Positions 54,624 through 63,322 of a stretch of 64,000 bases of DNA are shown one piece after another. The notes under the pieces were generated by a model. The model saw nothing but the letters and a program-made list of their open reading frames with translations, was not told the DNA's origin and searched no databases. This DNA is from Bacteroidia bacterium. GTDB taxonomy: Bacteria; Bacteroidota; Bacteroidia; NS11-12g; UBA9320. Numbering within the stretch: position 1 is the first letter of the stretch; the number at the start of each line of letters is the position of its first letter. Made by a program: the position numbers and the translations under genes. Location: the NCBI GenBank assembly GCA_965216465.1, contig CBDCFW010000006.1:1024001-1088000 (forward strand), read 5' to 3'.

Positions 54624-55088
54624 ATGAAGAGATTTGTATTGATAAGCATAATCTTATTTGCCCTACAAGTTGTTCAAGCTGAAAATTATCTGGTCCTCAA
54701 GCAACGAGGGGGTGATAAAGAAGTTGTAATACAAGAAGGAGAGATGGTGGTTATTAAAACAACCAATAAACGCAAACATCGTGGAAAGCTGCATGTTGTT
54801 TCTGAGCAAGTAGTTCGCATTCAGAACAAGTTGATTCTTATATCGAACATTGAAAGTGTTGGTAAGAAAAACATGTATATAAGTAGAGCCGCGGCCCTAA
54901 TCGTAACCAATGGAATGAACATGCTGTTATTCGGTTTTAACGACAATTTGAGAAACGGTTGGGGTGAACCAAGCGATCTTCACAAGGCAAGTGTGCCAAT
55001 GCTGAGTGTAGGAATTCCGCTTTTGGCAATAACTCGGAAAAGAAAAATCTGGAACTGGGAAGTTTCAGTTGAGATGCGAGAGGACTAA
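54624..55088 (+). CDS. Hypothetical exported/membrane protein
   Basis: Signal peptide and two C-terminal hydrophobic segments; no recognised family. Confidence 0.65.
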   Translation: MKRFVLISIILFALQVVQAENYLVLKQRGGDKEVVIQEGEMVVIKTTNKRKHRGKLHVVSEQVVRIQNKLILISNIESVGKKNMYISRAAALIVTNGMNMLLFGFNDNLRNGWGEPSDLHKASVPMLSVGIPLLAITRKRKIWNWEVSVEMRED

Positions 55089-56380
55089 CCTTTCATAATC
55101 GCTTCGATCTCATCAACTTCAATTGGCATTCCAACTTCGTCCATCATATCTACAGGACCGTTATCGGTAATTAGAATTTGATTTTCGATTCGAACACCAA
55201 TTCCTTCTTCGTTGATGTAGATTCCTGGTTCGCAAGAGAATGTCATTCCTGCTTGCATAGGCTCATAACGCATTCCGCTATCATGAACATCAATTCCTAA
55301 GAAGTGGCTGGTTCCATGCATAAAATACTTTTTCACCGCTGGCCAGTTTGGGTCTTCGTTGGCTACATCTTCTTTGGTAAGCAAACCTAGTCCAATAAGT
55401 TCTTCGGTCATCAGTCCTTCTACTTCCTTTTGGTATTCCATGAGCATGGTGCCTGGAACTAGCTTTTGGCGTGCTTGTTTCATTACTCTAAGCGTAGCAT
55501 TGTAAACATCCGCTTGGCGAGGTGAGAATGTTCCATTCGCAGGTAAGCAACGGGTCATGTCGCTGGCATAGTTTGCGTAATCCACTCCGCAGTCAACCAA
55601 GATTAAGTGACCATCTTTAACTTCTTTATTGTTTTCGATATAGTGCAAAGTGCAGGCTGCTGGTCCACTGGCTACAATTGGCTCAAAGCTAAATCCATTG
55701 CCTCTATTGCGAAGAAATTCATGGGCTAATTCGGCTTCAATCTCATGCTCCCATACACCTGGTTTAACAAACTTCATAATACGCTCCCAACCCATTTTCG
55801 AAATCTTAACCGCTTCTCGCATAACCTCTAGTTCAGTAGCAGTTTTAATTGATCGTAAACGTTGAAGAATCTTTCCTGCTCTTTTATAGGTGTGAAGCGG
55901 ATAAAGTTCTTTCAACTCGTTTGCAAAATCTAAAGCTTTATTTGGAGACTTAGGAGAGAAACGATCGTTCTCATTCAATGGCAAGTAAATATTATCTGCC
56001 ATGTTAATGATTTGACGAAGCTTTTGCATATAGCCATCATTCCAGAAAACATTAGCAATTCCACTGGTTGCGGTTGCATCAGCTTTAGTGTATTTATATC
56101 CTTCCCAAATAGCAATGTGCTCGTTGGTTTCCATCAAGAATAAACATTCTCTATACTCCGGAATCGGACAATCCGGGAAGAGAACCAAAACACTATCTTC
56201 TTGGTCAATTCCGCACATCCAAAAAATATCAGAATTCTGCTTGAACTTGTACATCGCATCTCCATTCCAGCTATACTGATAATTGCTGTGAAAAATTGCA
56301 ATGCTGTTTGGCTCCATTTGAGCTACAAAACGCTTTCTATTTTCTATAAATATTTGATTGTTGAGTCGTGGATATTTCAT
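55085..56380 (-). CDS. pepP: Xaa-Pro aminopeptidase (aminopeptidase P, M24B)
   Basis: AMP_N domain, LHY, DCG..Y.SD.TR, HGTSHFLGIDVHD, EPGIY and GVRIEN. TAGGTTTG at 56394-56387 supports ATG 56380. Confidence 0.92.
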   Translation of the reverse strand: MKYPRLNNQIFIENRKRFVAQMEPNSIAIFHSNYQYSWNGDAMYKFKQNSDIFWMCGIDQEDSVLVLFPDCPIPEYRECLFLMETNEHIAIWEGYKYTKADATATSGIANVFWNDGYMQKLRQIINMADNIYLPLNENDRFSPKSPNKALDFANELKELYPLHTYKRAGKILQRLRSIKTATELEVMREAVKISKMGWERIMKFVKPGVWEHEIEAELAHEFLRNRGNGFSFEPIVASGPAACTLHYIENNKEVKDGHLILVDCGVDYANYASDMTRCLPANGTFSPRQADVYNATLRVMKQARQKLVPGTMLMEYQKEVEGLMTEELIGLGLLTKEDVANEDPNWPAVKKYFMHGTSHFLGIDVHDSGMRYEPMQAGMTFSCEPGIYINEEGIGVRIENQILITDNGPVDMMDEVGMPIEVDEIEAIMKG

Positions 56381-56544
56381 GGGTAGCAAACCTACATAAA
56401 TTTTTGCATTAGCCTACCTAAATTCTAGGCTTAGGCATAAAATTTGAATGCATTTTAAATATTTAAATAAATTTGTTCTGACACAGTTGTGACATTGAAA
56501 GTGTTTACCAAAGTGTACATTTTAGCATTAACTAGAAAAGCATC

Positions 56545-58515
56545 ATGAAACGAATATTAACTCTCACATTAATTCTGGTCTTTAACCTTGGATTTTTCCA
56601 GGCAAAGGCACCAATCAAGAAACTGGCTTTAATTGTTGCTATAGGCAACTATGAAGAAGCAACCGGATGGAAGAAGATTTCTTCGTTGAACGATGTTGCA
56701 CTAATTTCAGGGGCACTTGAATCTCAAGGATTTTCAAAATCTGATATCAAAGTTATTCGTGACGCGGAGGCATCAAAAGCAGGAATTATACAAGCACTAA
56801 AAGATCTTGAAAATCGCGCTGAAAAAGGAGATATTGTTGTGGTACATTTTAGCAGTCACGGACAGCAAATCGAAGACAACAACCGCGATGAATTGGATGG
56901 ATTAGACGAAGCTATAGTTGGCTTTGGGGCTCCAGCATACTTCGATGAGGGGTACAACGGTGAAAACCATTTAAGAGATGAGGAACTTGGTGAAAGATTG
57001 GATGATATCCGTCAAAAGATAGGAAAAGAGGGGGATGTTCTGGTTCTTGTAGATGCTTGCCACAGTGGAACAGCAACACGAGGGCCTGAAATTCCACGTG
57101 GAGGAGTAGGACCATATGTCAGCAAAAACTTCAAGAAGAAAGTTGTTGAGCATCAAGATATTGGAATGTTCGAAAAGAATAACCCGATGTCAAGAGGGTC
57201 TTCAGACATGGCTCCAATGGTTGTTATTAGCGGTTCACGAGCGGATGAAACCAATAAGGAGTTTAATGGTGCCGGATCTTTGTCGGTAGCTTTTTCAAGA
57301 AGCTTCAACAATTTAAACAGCAACTATTCATACAGAACACTCTTCAGCAAAATTGCTAAAGAAATGAGTGTAATTGCACCTAAACAAACCCCTGCCATTG
57401 AAGGAGATATCGATCGATTATTGTTTGGTGGAGAAGTGGTTTCTCAGGAGCTGTACTATGGCGTTCTAAGCTTAGATGAAGACGCAATTGTGATTAACGG
57501 TGGTGTGTTTACCGGTTTGAACGAAGAAACTACGATTAAAATATACCCAAGCGGCACGATCAATACCAAAGGTGTTGAACCAATAACAACTGGAACAATA
57601 TCTTTTGCTGAAGGCTTTGAATCGAATGCGATTTTAGATAAGCCGCTCGAAGGAAACGCATCAGATTACTGGGTTTTTATTGATGAGAAAACATTTGGAG
57701 ATGTAACAATCAAAGTGAGCTTGGATAAGATCGATGATAGAACTTTAAAGCAAAACCTTACCACTTTCTTTGAAGGATATCCTTTAGCTAATGTAAGCTC
57801 TGACGCTGAATTTTATCTGGATGAAGCAGGAAGCAGAGTAAAACTGGTTCGCGTGAGTAACGATGAAACATTCAAAAATCAAATTCCAGTGAATGATGGG
57901 TTTAGAAAGCTTAAGTCTACCCTTTCGAGCTATGCTCAAGGCAAGTTTTTAAAAGGACTTGAATTGAGTAATCCAGATTACAATATTGAGCTTCAACTTA
58001 TTCCAGTTAAGATGAAAGGGAATACTGTTGGTGATACTCTTGATATTGAAACCAAGCTTGACGACGGAGGGATGGCTGCTTTCAGTACCAAAGACACTGT
58101 GATTATTCGTTTGATAAACAACTCAACCTTCCCAGTATATTTCAACATTATTGATATTCAACCTGATGGTAAGATTAACCCAATTTTGCCAAATCCAAGA
58201 AAAAGTCACAACCCTGTAGACTTTAGAATTGGGGCAGGTGAAACCTTTGATGTTAGAGGAAAATATGTACACTTTAGTCCGCCATATGGAGTAGAGACAT
58301 TCAAGGTGTTTGCCAGCTATCAACCGCTCAATTTCTCACCAATCTTTATGACCAAAGGAGGTGGAAGCAGCACTCGCGGAAACTTGAGCAATGAGGTAGA
58401 AAAGTTATTTGCAGACAGTTATTCTATGAGCAGAGGAGCTGATGTTGGAAGCCTAAGTGCGAGCACGGATGCATGTACGTTCTCCTACACATTTAAAATA
58501 GTTAGACCTAATTAA
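56545..58515 (+). CDS. Exported caspase-family (C14, orthocaspase/metacaspase-like) protease with C-terminal beta-sandwich (DUF4384-like) domain
   Basis: Signal peptide, KLALIVAIGNY, HFSSHGQQ (catalytic His), DELDGLDE, DACHSGT (catalytic Cys) and QTP.IEG; C-terminal IIDIQPDG.I...P...PYG.E.FKVFAS. Confidence 0.88.
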   Translation: MKRILTLTLILVFNLGFFQAKAPIKKLALIVAIGNYEEATGWKKISSLNDVALISGALESQGFSKSDIKVIRDAEASKAGIIQALKDLENRAEKGDIVVVHFSSHGQQIEDNNRDELDGLDEAIVGFGAPAYFDEGYNGENHLRDEELGERLDDIRQKIGKEGDVLVLVDACHSGTATRGPEIPRGGVGPYVSKNFKKKVVEHQDIGMFEKNNPMSRGSSDMAPMVVISGSRADETNKEFNGAGSLSVAFSRSFNNLNSNYSYRTLFSKIAKEMSVIAPKQTPAIEGDIDRLLFGGEVVSQELYYGVLSLDEDAIVINGGVFTGLNEETTIKIYPSGTINTKGVEPITTGTISFAEGFESNAILDKPLEGNASDYWVFIDEKTFGDVTIKVSLDKIDDRTLKQNLTTFFEGYPLANVSSDAEFYLDEAGSRVKLVRVSNDETFKNQIPVNDGFRKLKSTLSSYAQGKFLKGLELSNPDYNIELQLIPVKMKGNTVGDTLDIETKLDDGGMAAFSTKDTVIIRLINNSTFPVYFNIIDIQPDGKINPILPNPRKSHNPVDFRIGAGETFDVRGKYVHFSPPYGVETFKVFASYQPLNFSPIFMTKGGGSSTRGNLSNEVEKLFADSYSMSRGADVGSLSASTDACTFSYTFKIVRPN

Positions 58516-58526
58516 TAAAGTAAATC

Positions 58527-60140
58527 ATGAAAAATAAATTAACCCTACTAATAATCGGCTTGCTTTTATCAAGTATGAGTTTTGCTCAAGACACTTTAAA
58601 AGGCAAACCAGAACCAAAATCCTTTCCCTTTGGGAATCCAATGGATACCGCTTCGCGCGGCTTCTATGGAATTGATGATCGTAAAGAAGTAGAAGACATC
58701 GATTGGATTAAGGATTACACCAGAGCTACGGCGGTGATGATAAGAAAGAAAGATCTCAAAGGGAACAAGCTTTATGCGCCTACTTTACGTCAAGAACTTG
58801 AATATGCTCATAAAACCAAAAAATTTGAAGGTGTTCGTTACCTAGACCAACCTATAGCCGCATACTGCACTGGGTTTTTAATAGCTCCAGATATTATGGT
58901 TACTGCAGGCCATTGTATAGAAACCATGGATGATGCAGATGACTACCTGTGGCTTTTTGATTACACGATTGAAAATAACTACAATCCAAGAACGGGTTAT
59001 TTGACTGTTGATCTTAACAATGTGTACCGCGTTACTGAAATAATGGATGCCTTGCTTTATGACGGAGCTCAGTTTGATGAAGATCTAAATCTGGTGGATG
59101 TAAGTTACGATTATTCATTCATGAAGCTTGATCGAGAATCTGACCGCAGACCATATCGTTTCAGAACGGGTGGAACAGTTGGATTATTTACTGATATGTA
59201 CACCATTGGTTGTCCGTCAGGCCTTCCCCTCAAACTTACAGATAATGCGTTTGTAGTTGGAAACAGTGAGAACGAATGGTTTAAAACCAATATTGATGGA
59301 TTCCCCGGGAATTCTGGAGGGCCCGTTTTTGATGAATTGGGATGGATTGAAGGCATTCATGTGAGAGGCAGTATTAAGTATTCTAAAGAGCGTAAAAAAT
59401 GGACTGGAGACTATATCTACGACAAAGATTGTGACTGTGTTAAAACAGTAAGTTGGTACGGAACTTATCAACCAACCGATGCAGAAAATTATGTAATTGG
59501 TTCTCATGAGCATCGCATCGGTTCAATTAAGAAAAGGTCAATTTTGGTCGAAGCGATTTACAACAATGTAGATTGGGCATTACGCCATAATGATAAAGAT
59601 AGACTAGATTTTTGGTTGGCTTACAGTTGGATTGTAGAATCTGATTACACAGCAGGTCGGGGCAAATTTGAACAGACAGCTGTCAAATTGAATAATCTTG
59701 AAATGCTGAAAAGACTACAAGATTTTGGAGGAAGTGTTAAGCTGTTAGATGAGAATGGTCGGAGCTTTATTTTTAACGCGATTGAGCACAAAAATGCTGA
59801 TATGCTACAATATTTGTTGCGTAAAGGAGTTAGTCCTAACAAAGCTGATTCAAAAGGAGTTTATCCTATTCAGTATGCGATGGATAAGTATCAAATCGAC
59901 ATGGTTAACATGTTGATTGAAAGAGGAGCAAAGGTTAACGTTAAAAATGGATATGGAAGCAGTTTGTTGCACGAGGCCGTTGAAATGGATAACATGGAAC
60001 TGGTAAGATTGCTCATAGCGAATGGTGCTGATCACAATGCTGAAGATGTTGATGGCTTAACTCCATTCAAATTAGCGAAGAAAAGAAAATACAAAAGCCT
60101 AAAGAAGTACTTGAAAAAAGTAAAGAAAGGCAAAGCCTAA
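58527..60140 (+). CDS. Exported trypsin-fold (S1, V8-like) serine protease with C-terminal ankyrin repeats, paralog 1
   Basis: Signal peptide ending FA-Q, G.DDR N-terminal motif, CTGFLI, TAGHC (His), DYSF (Asp) and GNSGGP (Ser); ankyrin repeats (G.SLLHEAV...LLIANGAD.N..D..G.TP). Confidence 0.88.
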   Translation: MKNKLTLLIIGLLLSSMSFAQDTLKGKPEPKSFPFGNPMDTASRGFYGIDDRKEVEDIDWIKDYTRATAVMIRKKDLKGNKLYAPTLRQELEYAHKTKKFEGVRYLDQPIAAYCTGFLIAPDIMVTAGHCIETMDDADDYLWLFDYTIENNYNPRTGYLTVDLNNVYRVTEIMDALLYDGAQFDEDLNLVDVSYDYSFMKLDRESDRRPYRFRTGGTVGLFTDMYTIGCPSGLPLKLTDNAFVVGNSENEWFKTNIDGFPGNSGGPVFDELGWIEGIHVRGSIKYSKERKKWTGDYIYDKDCDCVKTVSWYGTYQPTDAENYVIGSHEHRIGSIKKRSILVEAIYNNVDWALRHNDKDRLDFWLAYSWIVESDYTAGRGKFEQTAVKLNNLEMLKRLQDFGGSVKLLDENGRSFIFNAIEHKNADMLQYLLRKGVSPNKADSKGVYPIQYAMDKYQIDMVNMLIERGAKVNVKNGYGSSLLHEAVEMDNMELVRLLIANGADHNAEDVDGLTPFKLAKKRKYKSLKKYLKKVKKGKA

Positions 60141-60143
60141 ATC

Positions 60144-61703
60144 ATGAGAATTCTCTTATCCATATTCTTAATTAGCCTTACAATTTGGTCTATTGCACAG
60201 GTCAAACCTGAAACAGAAGCGTACGAGTTCCCTTACGGAGATTTGGCAGACACTTCACGCGGGGTATTTGGCGATGACAATAGAAAAGAGGTTAAGGATG
60301 CAACGGAGTATCATCAGCTTGTTAGAGCAACCGCGGTGATGGTTCACAAGGATAAGATTCGAGGAAATAAAATATACAGTGAAACACTTCGTTCACGTTT
60401 GTCGCGAAAGTTTAATACAGATAGCTTTCATGAAAATGTGAAGTTTTTAGATCAACCGACTTGTGCAACATGTACAGGATTTTTGATTGCTCCTGATATT
60501 TTAGTAACAGCAGGGCATTGCATCGAAAAGCTTGAAGATGCAAAAAACTACGTATGGGTGTTTGACTATACTTTAGAAAAAAACTACAACGCATTTGCAG
60601 GCTATATTACGATTGATACTGCGGATATTTATTCCGTGACAGAAGTAATGGGGGCTTATTTTCAGTCGCTGAGTACCTATACCGATTACTCCTTTTTACG
60701 ATTGAATAAGAAGTCGAGTAGAGAACCCTATCATTTTAGAACAAGCGGTAAGGTGGCAAACTATAGCAATGTTTATACGATTGGATCTCCAACAGGATTG
60801 CCCCTAAAACTTGCAGACAATGCTTGGGTGGTGAACAATAGCTATGAAAGCTGGTTCAGAAACAGCATTGACGGATTTCCAGGAAACTCTGGTGGACCTG
60901 TATTTAACGAATATGGTCTCATTGAAGGAATTCATGTTCGAGGAGCAGTAGAATTAGCGGGTAAAAATTATACCGGCGACTATAAGTTCGATAGTACATG
61001 CAATTGTGTTAAAACAGTTCAATGGAGCTCAACTTGGGGAACTGAAGGTTCGCATGCTCATCGTATTACTGCCGTTCCTACGGAATTACTGCACGAAGCA
61101 CTGTATGGCAACTTTGTTTATGCCATTGATAATGGTGACATGGAGCGGTTGGAAGATTGGCTTGCCTATTCGTGGTTTACAAATTCTGAAATGGCACAGA
61201 AGCGAGGACGTTTTGAGTTTATGGTAGCAGAGAAAAACAACCTTGAAATGTTGAAACTTATCTTAGACCACAGTTTAAATCCAAGGGTAGTTGATTCAAA
61301 TGGTAAAAGTCTTTTGTTCTATGCTATGAATAACGACAATGAAGAAATGCTACGCTACCTATTACGTAAAGGAGTTAGCCCCAACAAAAGAGATAATCAA
61401 GAAAATTTGGTGTTGACAGAAGCAATAAGACAATCCAAGATCCCTATTGCACGAGCACTTATTGAACGAGGTGCAAATGTTAATGCAATAGATCATACAG
61501 GTGAAAATGCGTTACACATTGCGGCTCGAACCTGGAGTGTTGAATGGGTTGGGATGATTATAGCCAAAGGCGGAGATTATTCTATAAAAAATGAACAGGG
61601 TTGGGATGCGATTAAAATAGCGCGAAAGTCAAAAAATAAAGATGTTAAGCGTTATCTCAAACTTGTAAAAAAAGGCAAATTGCCGAGCATGATTTCAATC
61701 TGA
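60144..61703 (+). CDS. Exported trypsin-fold (S1, V8-like) serine protease with C-terminal ankyrin repeats, paralog 2
   Basis: Signal peptide ending IA-Q, GVFGDDNR, CTGFLI, TAGHC, DYSF and GNSGGP; ankyrin repeats (LIERGANVNAID..GENALHIAA). Collinear with paralog 1. Confidence 0.88.
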   Translation: MRILLSIFLISLTIWSIAQVKPETEAYEFPYGDLADTSRGVFGDDNRKEVKDATEYHQLVRATAVMVHKDKIRGNKIYSETLRSRLSRKFNTDSFHENVKFLDQPTCATCTGFLIAPDILVTAGHCIEKLEDAKNYVWVFDYTLEKNYNAFAGYITIDTADIYSVTEVMGAYFQSLSTYTDYSFLRLNKKSSREPYHFRTSGKVANYSNVYTIGSPTGLPLKLADNAWVVNNSYESWFRNSIDGFPGNSGGPVFNEYGLIEGIHVRGAVELAGKNYTGDYKFDSTCNCVKTVQWSSTWGTEGSHAHRITAVPTELLHEALYGNFVYAIDNGDMERLEDWLAYSWFTNSEMAQKRGRFEFMVAEKNNLEMLKLILDHSLNPRVVDSNGKSLLFYAMNNDNEEMLRYLLRKGVSPNKRDNQENLVLTEAIRQSKIPIARALIERGANVNAIDHTGENALHIAARTWSVEWVGMIIAKGGDYSIKNEQGWDAIKIARKSKNKDVKRYLKLVKKGKLPSMISI

Positions 61704-61780
61704 AAAAAATGCATTTTGGGTCATTAAGAATGGCAACTATCCCTTTTGTTTTTGTTACCTTTGGGACTTTGATTTAAGAA

Positions 61781-63322
61781 ATGGCAAAGACAGTAGAGGA
61801 ATTATTGTTCGATTTAGGAATTAAACCTGTAAATGAGAGCATTTGTACCGGAAGAGAATGGGTTACATCTTTAGGCACAGAAACGATAGATGTAACAAGT
61901 CCTGTTGATGGCAAAAAGTTAGCGAGTGTAGTCTATGCTTCACAAAGTGAATACGAGCATGTGTTAAAATTGGCACAAGAAGCATTTGAAAAGTGGAGAA
62001 CAGTTCCTGCGCCTGTACGAGGTGATATTGTAAGAAAATTTGCTGTTAAGCTACGATTGAGAAAGAAAGATCTTGGCCGATTGGTTAGTCTAGAAATGGG
62101 CAAAAGCTATCAAGAAGGGCTTGGAGAAGTTCAGGAAATGATAGATATCTGTGACTTTGCTGTTGGACTGTCTCGACAGCTTTATGGACTAAGCATGCAC
62201 AGTGAGAGACCAAATCACCGGATGTATGAACAATGGCATCCACTTGGGATTGTTGGTATTATATCAGCCTTTAATTTCCCAGTTGCTGTATGGGCTTGGA
62301 ACAGTATGATTGCAGCTATTTGTGGGGATGTCTGCATTTGGAAACCAAGCGAAAAAGCTCCATTGTCAGCCATTGCTTGCCATCAAATATTAAAAGAAGT
62401 TGTAGTCGAGAATGATATTCCTGAAGGAGTGTTTAACTTGATTATTGGCGACTATAGAATTGGAGAAAATATTGCCAAAGACAGAAGAATTCCATTGGTG
62501 TCTGCAACGGGAAGTACACGTATGGGAAGACGCGTTGGACAGATTGTAGGAGCTAGACTTGGCAAATCGCTACTTGAGCTTGGAGGAAACAATGCAATCA
62601 TCGTTTCGGAAAATGCAAATCTTGAGAATGCTCTAAGAGCAGCAGTTTTTGGTTGTGTTGGAACGGCCGGTCAACGATGTACTTCAACAAGAAGATTGTT
62701 GGTTCAAGATACCATTTTCGATAAGTTTAAAGATAAGCTAGTTGATGTTTACAGTCAATTAAAAATAGGTGATCCACTCGATGAGTCAAACCATGTAGGA
62801 CCATTGATTGATACTCAAGCCGTAAAGGCATTTCAAAATGCAATATCTGAACTCGAAGAGGAGGGAGGAACCGTAGTTTATGGAGGAGATGTTCTTTCTG
62901 GAGAAGGATACGAAAGCGGTTGTTACGTAAGACCTTGCATTGCTGAAGCACAGAACCATTTTAATATTGTTCAAGAAGAGACTTTTGCACCCATTGTTTA
63001 TTTAATTCCTTTTAGAAACTTAGAAGAAGCTGTATTGATGCAAAACGACGTGAAACAAGGACTAAGTTCAGCAATTTTTACTGATAACATTCAGGAAGCT
63101 GAAGCGTTTTTAAGCAGCCAAGGAAGCGATTGTGGTATTGCCAATGTGAACATCGGAACCAGTGGTGCGGAAATCGGAGGTGCGTTTGGAGGCGAGAAAG
63201 AAACAGGTGGTGGACGTGAAAGCGGATCTGATGCTTGGAAAGCATATATGCGTCGTCAAACGAATACCATTAATTATGGGAATGACTTGCCTCTAGCACA
63301 GGGGATTAAGTTTGATATCTAA
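61781..63322 (+). CDS. Aldehyde dehydrogenase family 7 (antiquitin / L-piperideine-6-carboxylate dehydrogenase-like)
   Basis: GEVQEMIDICDFAVGLSRQL, SAFNFPVAVW, LELGGNNA, GTAGQRCT and GAEIGGAFGGEKETGGGRESGSD; TACCTTTG promoter element at 61756-61763. Confidence 0.93.
   Translation: MAKTVEELLFDLGIKPVNESICTGREWVTSLGTETIDVTSPVDGKKLASVVYASQSEYEHVLKLAQEAFEKWRTVPAPVRGDIVRKFAVKLRLRKKDLGRLVSLEMGKSYQEGLGEVQEMIDICDFAVGLSRQLYGLSMHSERPNHRMYEQWHPLGIVGIISAFNFPVAVWAWNSMIAAICGDVCIWKPSEKAPLSAIACHQILKEVVVENDIPEGVFNLIIGDYRIGENIAKDRRIPLVSATGSTRMGRRVGQIVGARLGKSLLELGGNNAIIVSENANLENALRAAVFGCVGTAGQRCTSTRRLLVQDTIFDKFKDKLVDVYSQLKIGDPLDESNHVGPLIDTQAVKAFQNAISELEEEGGTVVYGGDVLSGEGYESGCYVRPCIAEAQNHFNIVQEETFAPIVYLIPFRNLEEAVLMQNDVKQGLSSAIFTDNIQEAEAFLSSQGSDCGIANVNIGTSGAEIGGAFGGEKETGGGRESGSDAWKAYMRRQTNTINYGNDLPLAQGIKFDI

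Follow-up and report, generated by a model that had tools for sequence, protein, structure and literature searches.

This work describes a three-gene cassette of presumably exported proteases at positions 56545-61703 of a 64,000-nucleotide stretch of DNA from a Bacteroidia bacterium (assembly GCA_965216465.1, contig CBDCFW010000006.1, positions 1,024,001 to 1,088,000), hereafter called the window. The cassette encodes a caspase-like cysteine protease of family C14, followed by two serine proteases of family S1 that carry ankyrin repeats. The linkage within the cassette, together with an invariant Arg at the end of a pro-segment in the serine proteases, suggests that the caspase switches the S1 proteases on outside the cytoplasm; we put this forward on the basis of sequence comparison and do not claim proof. 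More precisely, we read this accessory operon as an extracytoplasmic convertase-zymogen module in which the caspase activates both S1 zymogens, and we consider the chances for and against that reading to be about even.

Metacaspase-like proteases are widespread in bacteria, and to our knowledge next to nothing has been established about what they cut in nature, or to what end, outside CRISPR- and gasdermin-linked systems. The cassette offers a directly testable pair in this respect, consisting of an exported C14 enzyme, a candidate substrate, and a predicted scissile bond (R44|G45). If true, our reading would provide the first bacterial case of a caspase dedicated to activating a serine protease, would have caspase-family proteolysis acting in the envelope or extracellularly, and would explain how V8-type zymogens are controlled in Gram-negative bacteria.

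Gene order and conservation of the cassette

The three open reading frames are co-directional on the forward strand and separated by only 11 nt and 3 nt. The first (56545-58515) encodes a C14 metacaspase-like protease of 656 aa, as judged from Pfam and fold matches. The second (58527-60140) and third (60144-61703) encode S1 protease-ankyrin proteins of 537 and 519 aa, here called zymogen 1 and zymogen 2, which are paralogues with 49% identity. An earlier note, made from the sequence alone, had described this layout and had called the catalytic residues intact; both observations hold, with H105/C172 in the caspase, H129/D195/S263 in zymogen 1, and H125/D181/S249 in zymogen 2. A genome search found the cassette as a single copy in its own genome, and NCBIfam returned only weak, partial matches for the three proteins.

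Among 61 related genomes, the S1-ankyrin gene occurs in 13 and the caspase in 16, and all 13 genomes with the S1-ankyrin gene have the caspase as well. In 12 of them the caspase gene lies upstream on the same contig and strand, at most 1.4 kb away, and in the 13th the cassette is split at contig ends. Twelve orthologues were aligned and the alignment was used to scan species-representative genomes, which yielded 80 loci, 38 of Bacteroidota type and 42 from other phyla. The caspase lies within the fetched flank in 34 of the 38 Bacteroidota-type loci; the remaining four, one in Bizionia echini and three located at contig ends, have it elsewhere in the same genome. A caspase match was found in none of the flanks of the 42 non-Bacteroidota loci. 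The three genes, grouped into one system in the earlier note, are thus a conserved and co-inherited module, with the caspase present in 13/13 related genomes that have the S1-ankyrin gene and in the genomes of 38/38 Bacteroidota loci.

Gene order varies somewhat around this theme. About 20 Bacteroidota-type loci have the caspase immediately upstream and one has it on the opposite strand. In 13 loci, mostly of Winogradskyella and Seonamhaeicola, it is found downstream, separated by one or two additional genes. The S1-ankyrin gene has been duplicated in tandem repeatedly, giving two or three copies per caspase, as is also the case in the window (L066, L070, L105, L058, and G145:C4:488673-491677).

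The cassette is gained or lost as one unit, leaving an empty-site polymorphism. In five cassette-free genomes of the same genus (L124-L128), the divergent aminopeptidase (pepP) and aldehyde-dehydrogenase genes are 0.1-1.3 kb apart; with the cassette, the distance between them is 5.4 kb (window 55085-63322). The cassette is also rare, with 3 carriers among the 401 genomes of an even sample of the class. Conserved linkage, presence or absence as a block, and rarity together mark it as a conserved but accessory module. Its carriers include the cultivable marine genera Winogradskyella, Leeuwenhoekiella, Bizionia, and Seonamhaeicola.

Pro-segment and proposed activation junction of the serine proteases

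Both serine proteases match Trypsin_2 in Pfam (52.1 and 51.2 bits against a cut-off of 27.6), in addition to Trypsin and ankyrin repeats. Zymogen 1 consists of a signal peptide (residues 1-20), a pro-segment (21-44), the S1 domain (about 45-335), ankyrin repeats (about 338-520), and a Lys-rich tail. Its pro-segment, which contains an FPFG motif, and the junction S43-R44-G45 were placed at 58587-58661 from the model and the alignment. The catalytic triad spans 58911-59315, with H129 at 58911-58913, D195 at 59109-59111, and S263 at 59313-59315, and a C114-C130 pair flanks the His. Zymogen 2 is built alike, with a signal peptide (1-18), a pro-segment (19-39), the junction S38-R39-G40, and the triad named above. 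The two SRG junctions are at 58653-58661 and 60255-60263, exactly where the earlier note had put them. As the paralogues share SRG through homology and not through coincidence, it is conservation among orthologues that provides a meaningful test.

We therefore turn to the N-termini of 71 homologues, 44 from Bacteroidota and 27 from Bdellovibrionota, Elusimicrobia, and other phyla. The triad residues H129, D195, and S263 are invariant in all of them. All 44 Bacteroidota proteins carry some 20 extra residues between the signal peptide and the start of the core (hydrophobic-aromatic-G-x-D-x-R), which are absent from all 27 others; in the window zymogens, the pro-segment adds 21-24 aa beyond the signal peptide. 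This segment ends in Arg in 44/44 Bacteroidota proteins (the automatic counts each gave 43/44, the misses being a one-residue insertion and a pattern mis-hit, both settled by eye). The junction Arg lies 35-56 residues from Met1 (median 41), and the equivalent position in the other phyla, where the core directly follows the signal peptide, lies at 20-38 (median 25).

The residues around the junction differ between the two groups as well. In the Bacteroidota proteins, Gly is the usual P1' residue (36-37 of the 44, next to 3 with Asn and 4 with Asp), 31-32 have Ser or Thr at P2, and an xP(F/Y/W) motif occurs in 41/44 pro-segments as against 1/27 homologues from other phyla. The latter have Lys at the junction position in 13 cases, Arg in 5, and another residue in 9, and their P1' is Val in 18 and Gly in one. 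The propeptide claimed by the earlier note is, in other words, a true N-terminal extension relative to the homologues, with an invariant terminal Arg.

That note had also proposed to compare (S/T)RG with the presence of the caspase. The caspase-less homologues have neither (S/T)RG nor the pro-segment, and this comparison of sequences favours a link between pro-segment, Arg-Gly, and caspase. Five S1-plus-ankyrin proteins of Bacteriovoracaceae, for instance, have the same architecture without the pro-segment (Pfam check), and PF00656 was found in none of their five genomes. Exported S1-ankyrin proteases of predatory Bdellovibrionota are represented in our set by L073 and L075-L081 (Peredibacter and other Bacteriovoracaceae; L073, L075, L076, L077, and L081 were checked with Pfam). 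By analogy, this predatory lifestyle hints at attack on other cells as the ancestral role of S1-ankyrin proteins.

The model of zymogen 1, the one S1-ankyrin protein modelled, has a mean pLDDT of 89.6 and a pTM of 0.86. Its fold begins at residue 45, and residues 20-43 are predicted to be disordered (pLDDT <50). When the whole model was searched against the PDB with Foldseek, designed ankyrin proteins filled the list, and a VIA full-library search was used instead. V8 (1qy6_A) aligns with Z 17.6 (root-mean-square deviation (rmsd) 3.0, 200 residues aligned), model residues 44-348 matching chain residues 1-214. The Glu endopeptidase 1p3e_A aligns with Z 17.4 (rmsd 3.4, 200 aligned), model residues 45-346 matching 1-215. 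Trypsins, on the other hand, align from model residue 50, which corresponds to chain residue 17. The model thus places the R44|G45 bond at most one residue from a V8-type mature N-terminus, and the match of the junction to the mature N-terminus of V8 and the Glu endopeptidases, claimed in the earlier note, agrees with the structural alignment to within one residue.

As to the kind of protease, the serine proteases among the fold matches are tied at Z 17-18.5, within about 1 Z, with LysC (4nsv_A) at the top at Z 18.5, and the sequence similarity to V8 and the Glu endopeptidases is marginal (E 0.0065). The His of a GIH motif, a candidate for the His213-type determinant of Glu specificity, aligns to GVH of 1p3c, and many orthologues have Leu instead. 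A complex prediction of the caspase (residues 21-656) with the zymogen (21-340) scored 0.00, which is evidence neither way.

The structural alignment also lends itself to a different reading, in which the Arg is not cleaved, the extension stays in place for docking, sorting, or anchoring, and R44 is an inherited structural residue. The first residue of V8 falls on the Arg itself, at model residue 44, and in four caspase-less homologues (L073, L077, L078, L079) the signal peptide apparently ends before R-V-I-Y-G, so that a basic residue can belong to the mature enzyme. We nevertheless find this quite improbable. An Arg that is invariant while its neighbours vary fits a recognition site, and the extension is predicted to be disordered. 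Moreover, V8-type activity needs a free N-terminus and is blocked by N-terminal extensions. For V8 (SspA), the available text of PMC12021127 states that removal of the propeptide yields the active enzyme and that aureolysin makes the final cut.

Some further features of the S1-ankyrin proteins deserve mention. In one type of paralogue (L058:7986-9491, L072:975-2501, and L008:1492-3036), the pro-segment has another R-G close to its beginning (T-x-R-G-E/Q), a position at which zymogen 1 of the window has L-K-G-K (58587-58610). A Lys-rich C-terminal helix with the consensus AKKxKxKxxKKYLKKAxKGK is conserved (window 60063-60137 and 61620-61700), as is a C-x-C pair at residues 302 and 304.

The caspase and its Arg-Gly loops

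The first protein of the cassette matches Peptidase_C14 of Pfam over residues 25-289 (72.6 bits against a cut-off of 21.4) and DUF4384 below threshold (22.8 bits, cut-off 27). A signal peptide (1-20) is followed by the caspase domain (about 24-300), a small beta-barrel (about 302-382), an alpha/beta region, and a C-terminal part (about 477-656) that resembles an MG-like beta-sandwich/DUF4384, the MG domains of C5/A2M matching it modestly (Z 9-9.6). An N-terminal prodomain is absent. Ranked by fold, AtMC4 comes first (6w8r_A, Z 23.7, rmsd 3.4, 236 aligned), followed by GSU0716 (Z 22.9) and AtMC9 (Z 22.7); caspases reach Z 20-21 and RgpB Z 10.7. By sequence, the nearest proteins are Yca1 (E 2.7e-9) and AtMC4.

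The stretch from the catalytic His105 (56857-56859) to Cys172 (57058-57060) aligns to Yca1, and both residues, present in 35/35 orthologues, fall on its HG and DSCHSG motifs. D50, S103, and the pocket residue D170 are equally invariant (35/35), and so is each of the residues D111, E116, D118, D121, and E122 of the acidic loop that follows the His. D50 and D170 align to the Asp of the ND and DSC motifs of Yca1, which we take to be the positions that correspond to the numbered residues of TbMCA2. According to the available text of PMC4357240, the S1-pocket residues were defined in TbMCA2 (Asp95, Asp211) and are conserved in Yca1, and a strict preference for Arg or Lys at P1 characterizes metacaspases. 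The window caspase has the residues of a metacaspase-type acidic S1 pocket, and we predict a basic P1 for it, in line with the basic-P1 preference of metacaspases that the earlier note had invoked. The invariant residues also align with Yca1 motifs near the Ca2+ site of TbMCA2, and the caspase probably depends on Ca2+ as its eukaryotic relatives do.

Also in line with the earlier note, the caspase contains four (S/T)RG tripeptides (residues 178-180, 216-218, 610-612, and 629-631), and it has six R-G dipeptides where 2.25 are expected from composition. Two of these are found in the loop after the catalytic Cys (57076-57102), namely T178-R179-G180 and R185-G186; R179 and R185-G186 are each conserved in 35/35 orthologues, and they are candidate autoprocessing sites. 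The linker between the p20-like and p10-like parts holds S216-R217-G218 (57190-57198), aligned to an SRG in AtMC4; here, Arg is found in 10 of the 35 caspases and a gap in 22. In the C-terminal tail (58372-58437), T610-R611-G612 and S629-R630-G631 were placed by orthologue alignment and model, R611 being kept in 27/35 and R630 in 34/35. Model residues 174-181, 210-218, and 606-612 fall below pLDDT 50. The conserved R-G loops are thus situated within or next to model regions of low confidence, resemble the zymogen junction in their (S/T)-R-G form, and are plausible self-processing sites.

In the lineage with a T-R-D junction, the caspase and S1-ankyrin genes flank a gene for another exported C14 protein, a short paralogue of some 350 aa (L010:3183-4250 on the reverse strand, L016:321-1364, L063:6811-7899, L068:6803-7864, and L062:3565-4764). 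This paralogue reads DAGFGW where the catalytic Cys-His would stand, and two of the five have lost the catalytic His too, while the acidic loop and an xRGG loop are retained. Judged from these sequences, it is a pseudo-caspase and may have a regulatory role.

One could also turn the order around and have Arg-specific S1-ankyrin proteases cut the (S/T)RG loops of the caspase, either activating or inactivating it. The three or four R-G loops of the caspase, strongly conserved and modelled with low confidence, would suit such cutting, and the dead paralogues keep xRGG, so that the loop is no self-cleavage site in those proteins. Yet the caspases of three genomes that lack the S1-ankyrin gene (L029-L031) keep the same R-G loops, the S1 pro-segment is left unexplained, and self-processing of metacaspases after basic residues is known (PMC4357240, available text). 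We think this reversed order very unlikely.

Predicted export and compartment

The three N-termini each have K/R ahead of a hydrophobic core of 12 aa (mean Kyte-Doolittle 2.4-2.8), and the call of a signal peptide is also based on a modelled N-terminal helix and a cleavage motif of small residues. In the S1-ankyrin proteins this motif is A-Q, conserved in at least 90% of the orthologues, and Gln after the signal peptidase I site is a habit of Bacteroidota. Signal-like N-termini were found in 30/30 listed caspase orthologues and 44/44 S1-ankyrin proteins. The signal peptides that the earlier note assigned to all three proteins are supported by basic start, hydrophobic core, and cleavage motif, and we infer Sec-dependent export for the whole set. 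With its conserved C114-C130 pair on either side of the catalytic His, the S1 domain seems suited to an oxidising compartment. A type IX secretion system (T9SS) C-terminal domain of the Por_Secre_tail type was not detected in any of the three proteins with Pfam and NCBIfam (E<=0.01), as the earlier note had stated. Their reading as T9SS cargo was rejected, the three proteins having no sorting-domain match in either database.

The export signals also bear on the idea that the signal peptides are misread and the cassette is one of the known caspase-based systems for anti-phage defence or cell death in the cytoplasm (gasdermin-, EACC1-, or CRISPR-linked), an idea to which we give hardly any credence. 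It draws on domain-level PADLOC matches ('caspase', 'Ankyrin', 'PDC-M72A', 'RT-Protease_XI') and a weak match to caspase_w_EACC1 of NCBIfam (25.6 bits against a cut-off of 140), all of them partial, generic, and far under the family cut-offs. The consistently signal-like N-termini of both families and the C114-C130 pair speak against it, and NTPase, gasdermin, CRISPR, and sensor genes are absent from the locus. Assignment to a known anti-phage system was rejected, as PADLOC gives only partial, generic matches to caspase, ankyrin, and trypsin domains.

Variants of the cassette and the surrounding locus

In Flavobacteriaceae, the cassette can be part of a larger cluster consisting, in this order, of the S1-ankyrin gene, a DUF900 alpha/beta hydrolase, a 476-aa protein, the caspase, and TPR-CHAT or a second, divergent caspase-like protein. 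L045:7995-17531 of Winogradskyella thalassocola is an example, with about 12 similar loci, and all products have signal-like N-termini. In many loci, members of the 476-aa family are found near the caspase, either beside it or a few kb away (L045:11057-12484, L047:4535-5992, L060:1974-3518, and L062:10054-11526 on the reverse strand). The genome of the window has a member as well (G000:C2:48294-49772, reverse strand), unlinked to the cassette and about 8 kb from a C14 gene (C2:57510-58325). The family has no Pfam match, its relatives in the Atlas are only hypothetical proteins of Bacteroidota, and the nearest named cluster, PagL, scores 0.79, which is chance level.

The three related genomes that have the caspase without the S1-ankyrin gene encode an adjacent exported serine protease of 451-488 aa (L029:2-1465, forward; L030:3-1355, reverse; L031:3723-4928, forward). 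Two of these are Trypsin_2 proteins and that of L031 was judged from its similar N-terminus only; in all three, (M/F)-R-G occurs in the early part of the protease domain.

Upstream of the cassette, TAAATTTG (56468-56475, forward strand) is a candidate -7 promoter box 70 nt 5' of the caspase start codon. It follows TAnnTTTG, which we take to be the consensus of the Bacteroidota -7 box; with a background of about 0.4 per kb per strand in the window, the match carries little weight. A sigma-70 scan gave 15 promoter-like sites where 15.6 are expected, sigma-70 being the wrong promoter model for Bacteroidota, and a terminator scan gave 4 sites against 3.1 expected.

Proposed mechanism and its weighing

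In the mechanism that we propose, removal of the signal peptides would leave each S1 zymogen with its flexible pro-segment of 21-24 aa. The exported caspase would become active, plausibly aided by Ca2+ and self-cleavage, and would probably process itself first at its own conserved (S/T)RG loops. It would then be the most likely enzyme to cut after the junction Arg, at R44|G45 in zymogen 1 and R39|G40 in zymogen 2, which would expose the V8-type mature N-terminus that determines activity. We infer the cleavage at R|G, the identity of the cutter, the gating by Ca2+, and the inactivity of the proteases with the extension attached. Nutrition, attack on other cells, and envelope-level self-destruction are candidate roles for the module.

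Several observations weigh against caspase-driven activation. To start with, the S1-ankyrin proteins of Bacteroidota form one clade (tree support 0.96). Pro-segment, Arg-Gly, and caspase linkage thus arose together once, and the comparison across phyla amounts to a single, unreplicated contrast. Lys or Arg occupies the junction position in 18 of the 27 caspase-less homologues, sometimes as the first residue after the signal peptide. By this comparison, the basic residue is ancestral and predates the link with the caspase, and the Arg might have been kept for structural reasons or belong to a self-processing site of earlier origin. Viewed by eye, the caspase linker motif does not co-vary with the P1' residue of the zymogens (G, N, or D).

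The proteases themselves give further grounds for caution. D257, six residues before the catalytic Ser and at least 90% conserved, stands at the spacing of the trypsins, so that the zymogens may activate themselves after Arg. In the caspase, the SRG of the p20-p10 linker is kept in only 10/35 orthologues, and the TRG beside the catalytic Cys is invariant even in the catalytically dead paralogues, which means that this loop may be structural. The genome of the window has four other C14 genes (open frames of 458-1270 aa; domains at C5:473976-474626, C1:18853-19590, C2:57510-58325, and C6:1152242-1153003). Finally, the caspase occurs in three related genomes that lack an S1-ankyrin gene, and hence has some role of its own.

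Much of this would suit an arrangement without hierarchy, in which caspase and S1-ankyrin proteases are co-secreted for the same substrate or niche and the pro-segment is removed either in trans after Arg by the S1 protease itself or by a housekeeping envelope protease. The basic junction residue of the caspase-less homologues and the trypsin-like spacing of D257 both point that way. So does the top-ranking protease fold, that of the Lys-specific LysC (within 1 Z of V8 and the Glu endopeptidases), and the exported hydrolases added in Flavobacteriaceae clusters (DUF900, TPR-CHAT) resemble an enzyme battery. What such an arrangement leaves unexplained is why a conserved pro-segment of 20 aa is found only in the caspase-linked clade, and why only there P1' shifts from Val (18/27) to Gly, Asn, or Asp (43-44/44). 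In addition, 9/27 caspase-less homologues have no basic junction residue, and self-cleavage after Lys or Arg is thus no rule of the family. On balance we judge parallel secretion to be on the unlikely side, and we retain activation of the zymogens by the caspase as our working model.

Possible biological meaning

The cassette may be part of something larger. It could be the core of a previously unrecognised extracytoplasmic cascade initiated by a caspase, in which a metacaspase fired by a Ca2+-rich compartment or an envelope insult arms ankyrin-targeted serine proteases; we offer this as speculation that is rather unlikely to be correct. The versions in Flavobacteriaceae would then also arm the DUF900 hydrolase and the TPR-CHAT protease, with the dead pseudo-caspases serving as brakes in some lineages, and the output would be killing of prey, algae, or competitors, or self-destruction at the level of the envelope. 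If true, such a cascade would be a bacterial counterpart, outside the cytoplasm, of apoptotic and clotting-type cascades. If the caspase does not activate the zymogens after all, the module is still a conserved, unannotated battery of secreted proteases.

Comparison with known systems

In the literature on caspases, metacaspases, and orthocaspases, DUF4384, secretion, and trypsin-like or ankyrin proteins, we found no description of a module of exported C14 and S1-ankyrin proteins. N-terminal helices that are possible signal peptides have been noted in prokaryotic metacaspases (PMC3501461, available text). The word 'trypsin' does not occur in the main text of that paper, and its supplementary tables of operon neighbours may list such neighbours. 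To call the system unlike anything known, as the earlier note had implied, is too strong, as there are precedents both for heterologous activation of V8-type zymogens and, within Bacteroidota, for clan-CD maturases of Arg specificity.

Metacaspases and orthocaspases (Yca1, TbMCA2, AtMC4/9, GSU0716) share with the window caspase the His-Cys dyad, the acidic S1 pocket, the acidic loop, the fold (Z 22-24), and a flexible, Arg-bearing linker between the p20-like and p10-like parts. MaOC1 is another bacterial orthocaspase, and we know of no natural substrate established for free-standing enzymes of this kind. The window caspase differs from these enzymes by its predicted Sec signal peptide, the lack of an N-terminal prodomain, three extra C-terminal domains (the MG-like beta-sandwich among them), and a candidate substrate encoded next door.

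Cytoplasmic conflict systems (EACC1, NucA-trypsin, CHAT/Craspase, and gasdermin operons) likewise combine paired caspase-like and trypsin-like peptidases in patchily distributed accessory loci (PMC8195603, available text), and the Flavobacteriaceae versions of the cassette also carry a TPR-CHAT gene. In contrast to those systems, the components of the cassette look exported, and NTPase, adaptor, and effector-associated domains are absent.

The staphylococcal cascade of aureolysin and V8 (sspABC) comes closer. It too has a secreted V8-fold protease with an N-terminal propeptide, serine- and cysteine-protease genes in one operon, and an activating cut of V8 by a different secreted protease (PMC12021127, available text). 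In the same text, aureolysin is needed for the final cut of SspA because P1 does not match the zymogen's own specificity. The order of the proteases differs: V8 goes on to activate staphopain B, which places the cysteine protease downstream, whereas it would act upstream in our module. The activator differs as well, aureolysin being a thermolysin-type metalloprotease and the proposed activator here a metacaspase-like C14 enzyme. Furthermore, the present system belongs to a Gram-negative host and has a much shorter propeptide and ankyrin repeats.

Arg-gingipain of Porphyromonas gingivalis (clan CD, family C25) is, like the window caspase, an exported cysteine protease of caspase fold from Bacteroidota. 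In the available texts, it matures exported proteins such as FimA (PMC4576663), and RgpB processes itself at Arg (PMC4357240). The window caspase belongs instead to family C14 (Z 10.7 with RgpB versus 23.7 with AtMC4), has no detected T9SS C-terminal domain, and has a dedicated operon partner where the gingipain uses a broad range of substrates. By analogy, then, the logic of the proposed module resembles the aureolysin-V8 step and Arg-gingipain maturation, and its new parts would be the C14 activator and the ankyrin-bearing zymogens.

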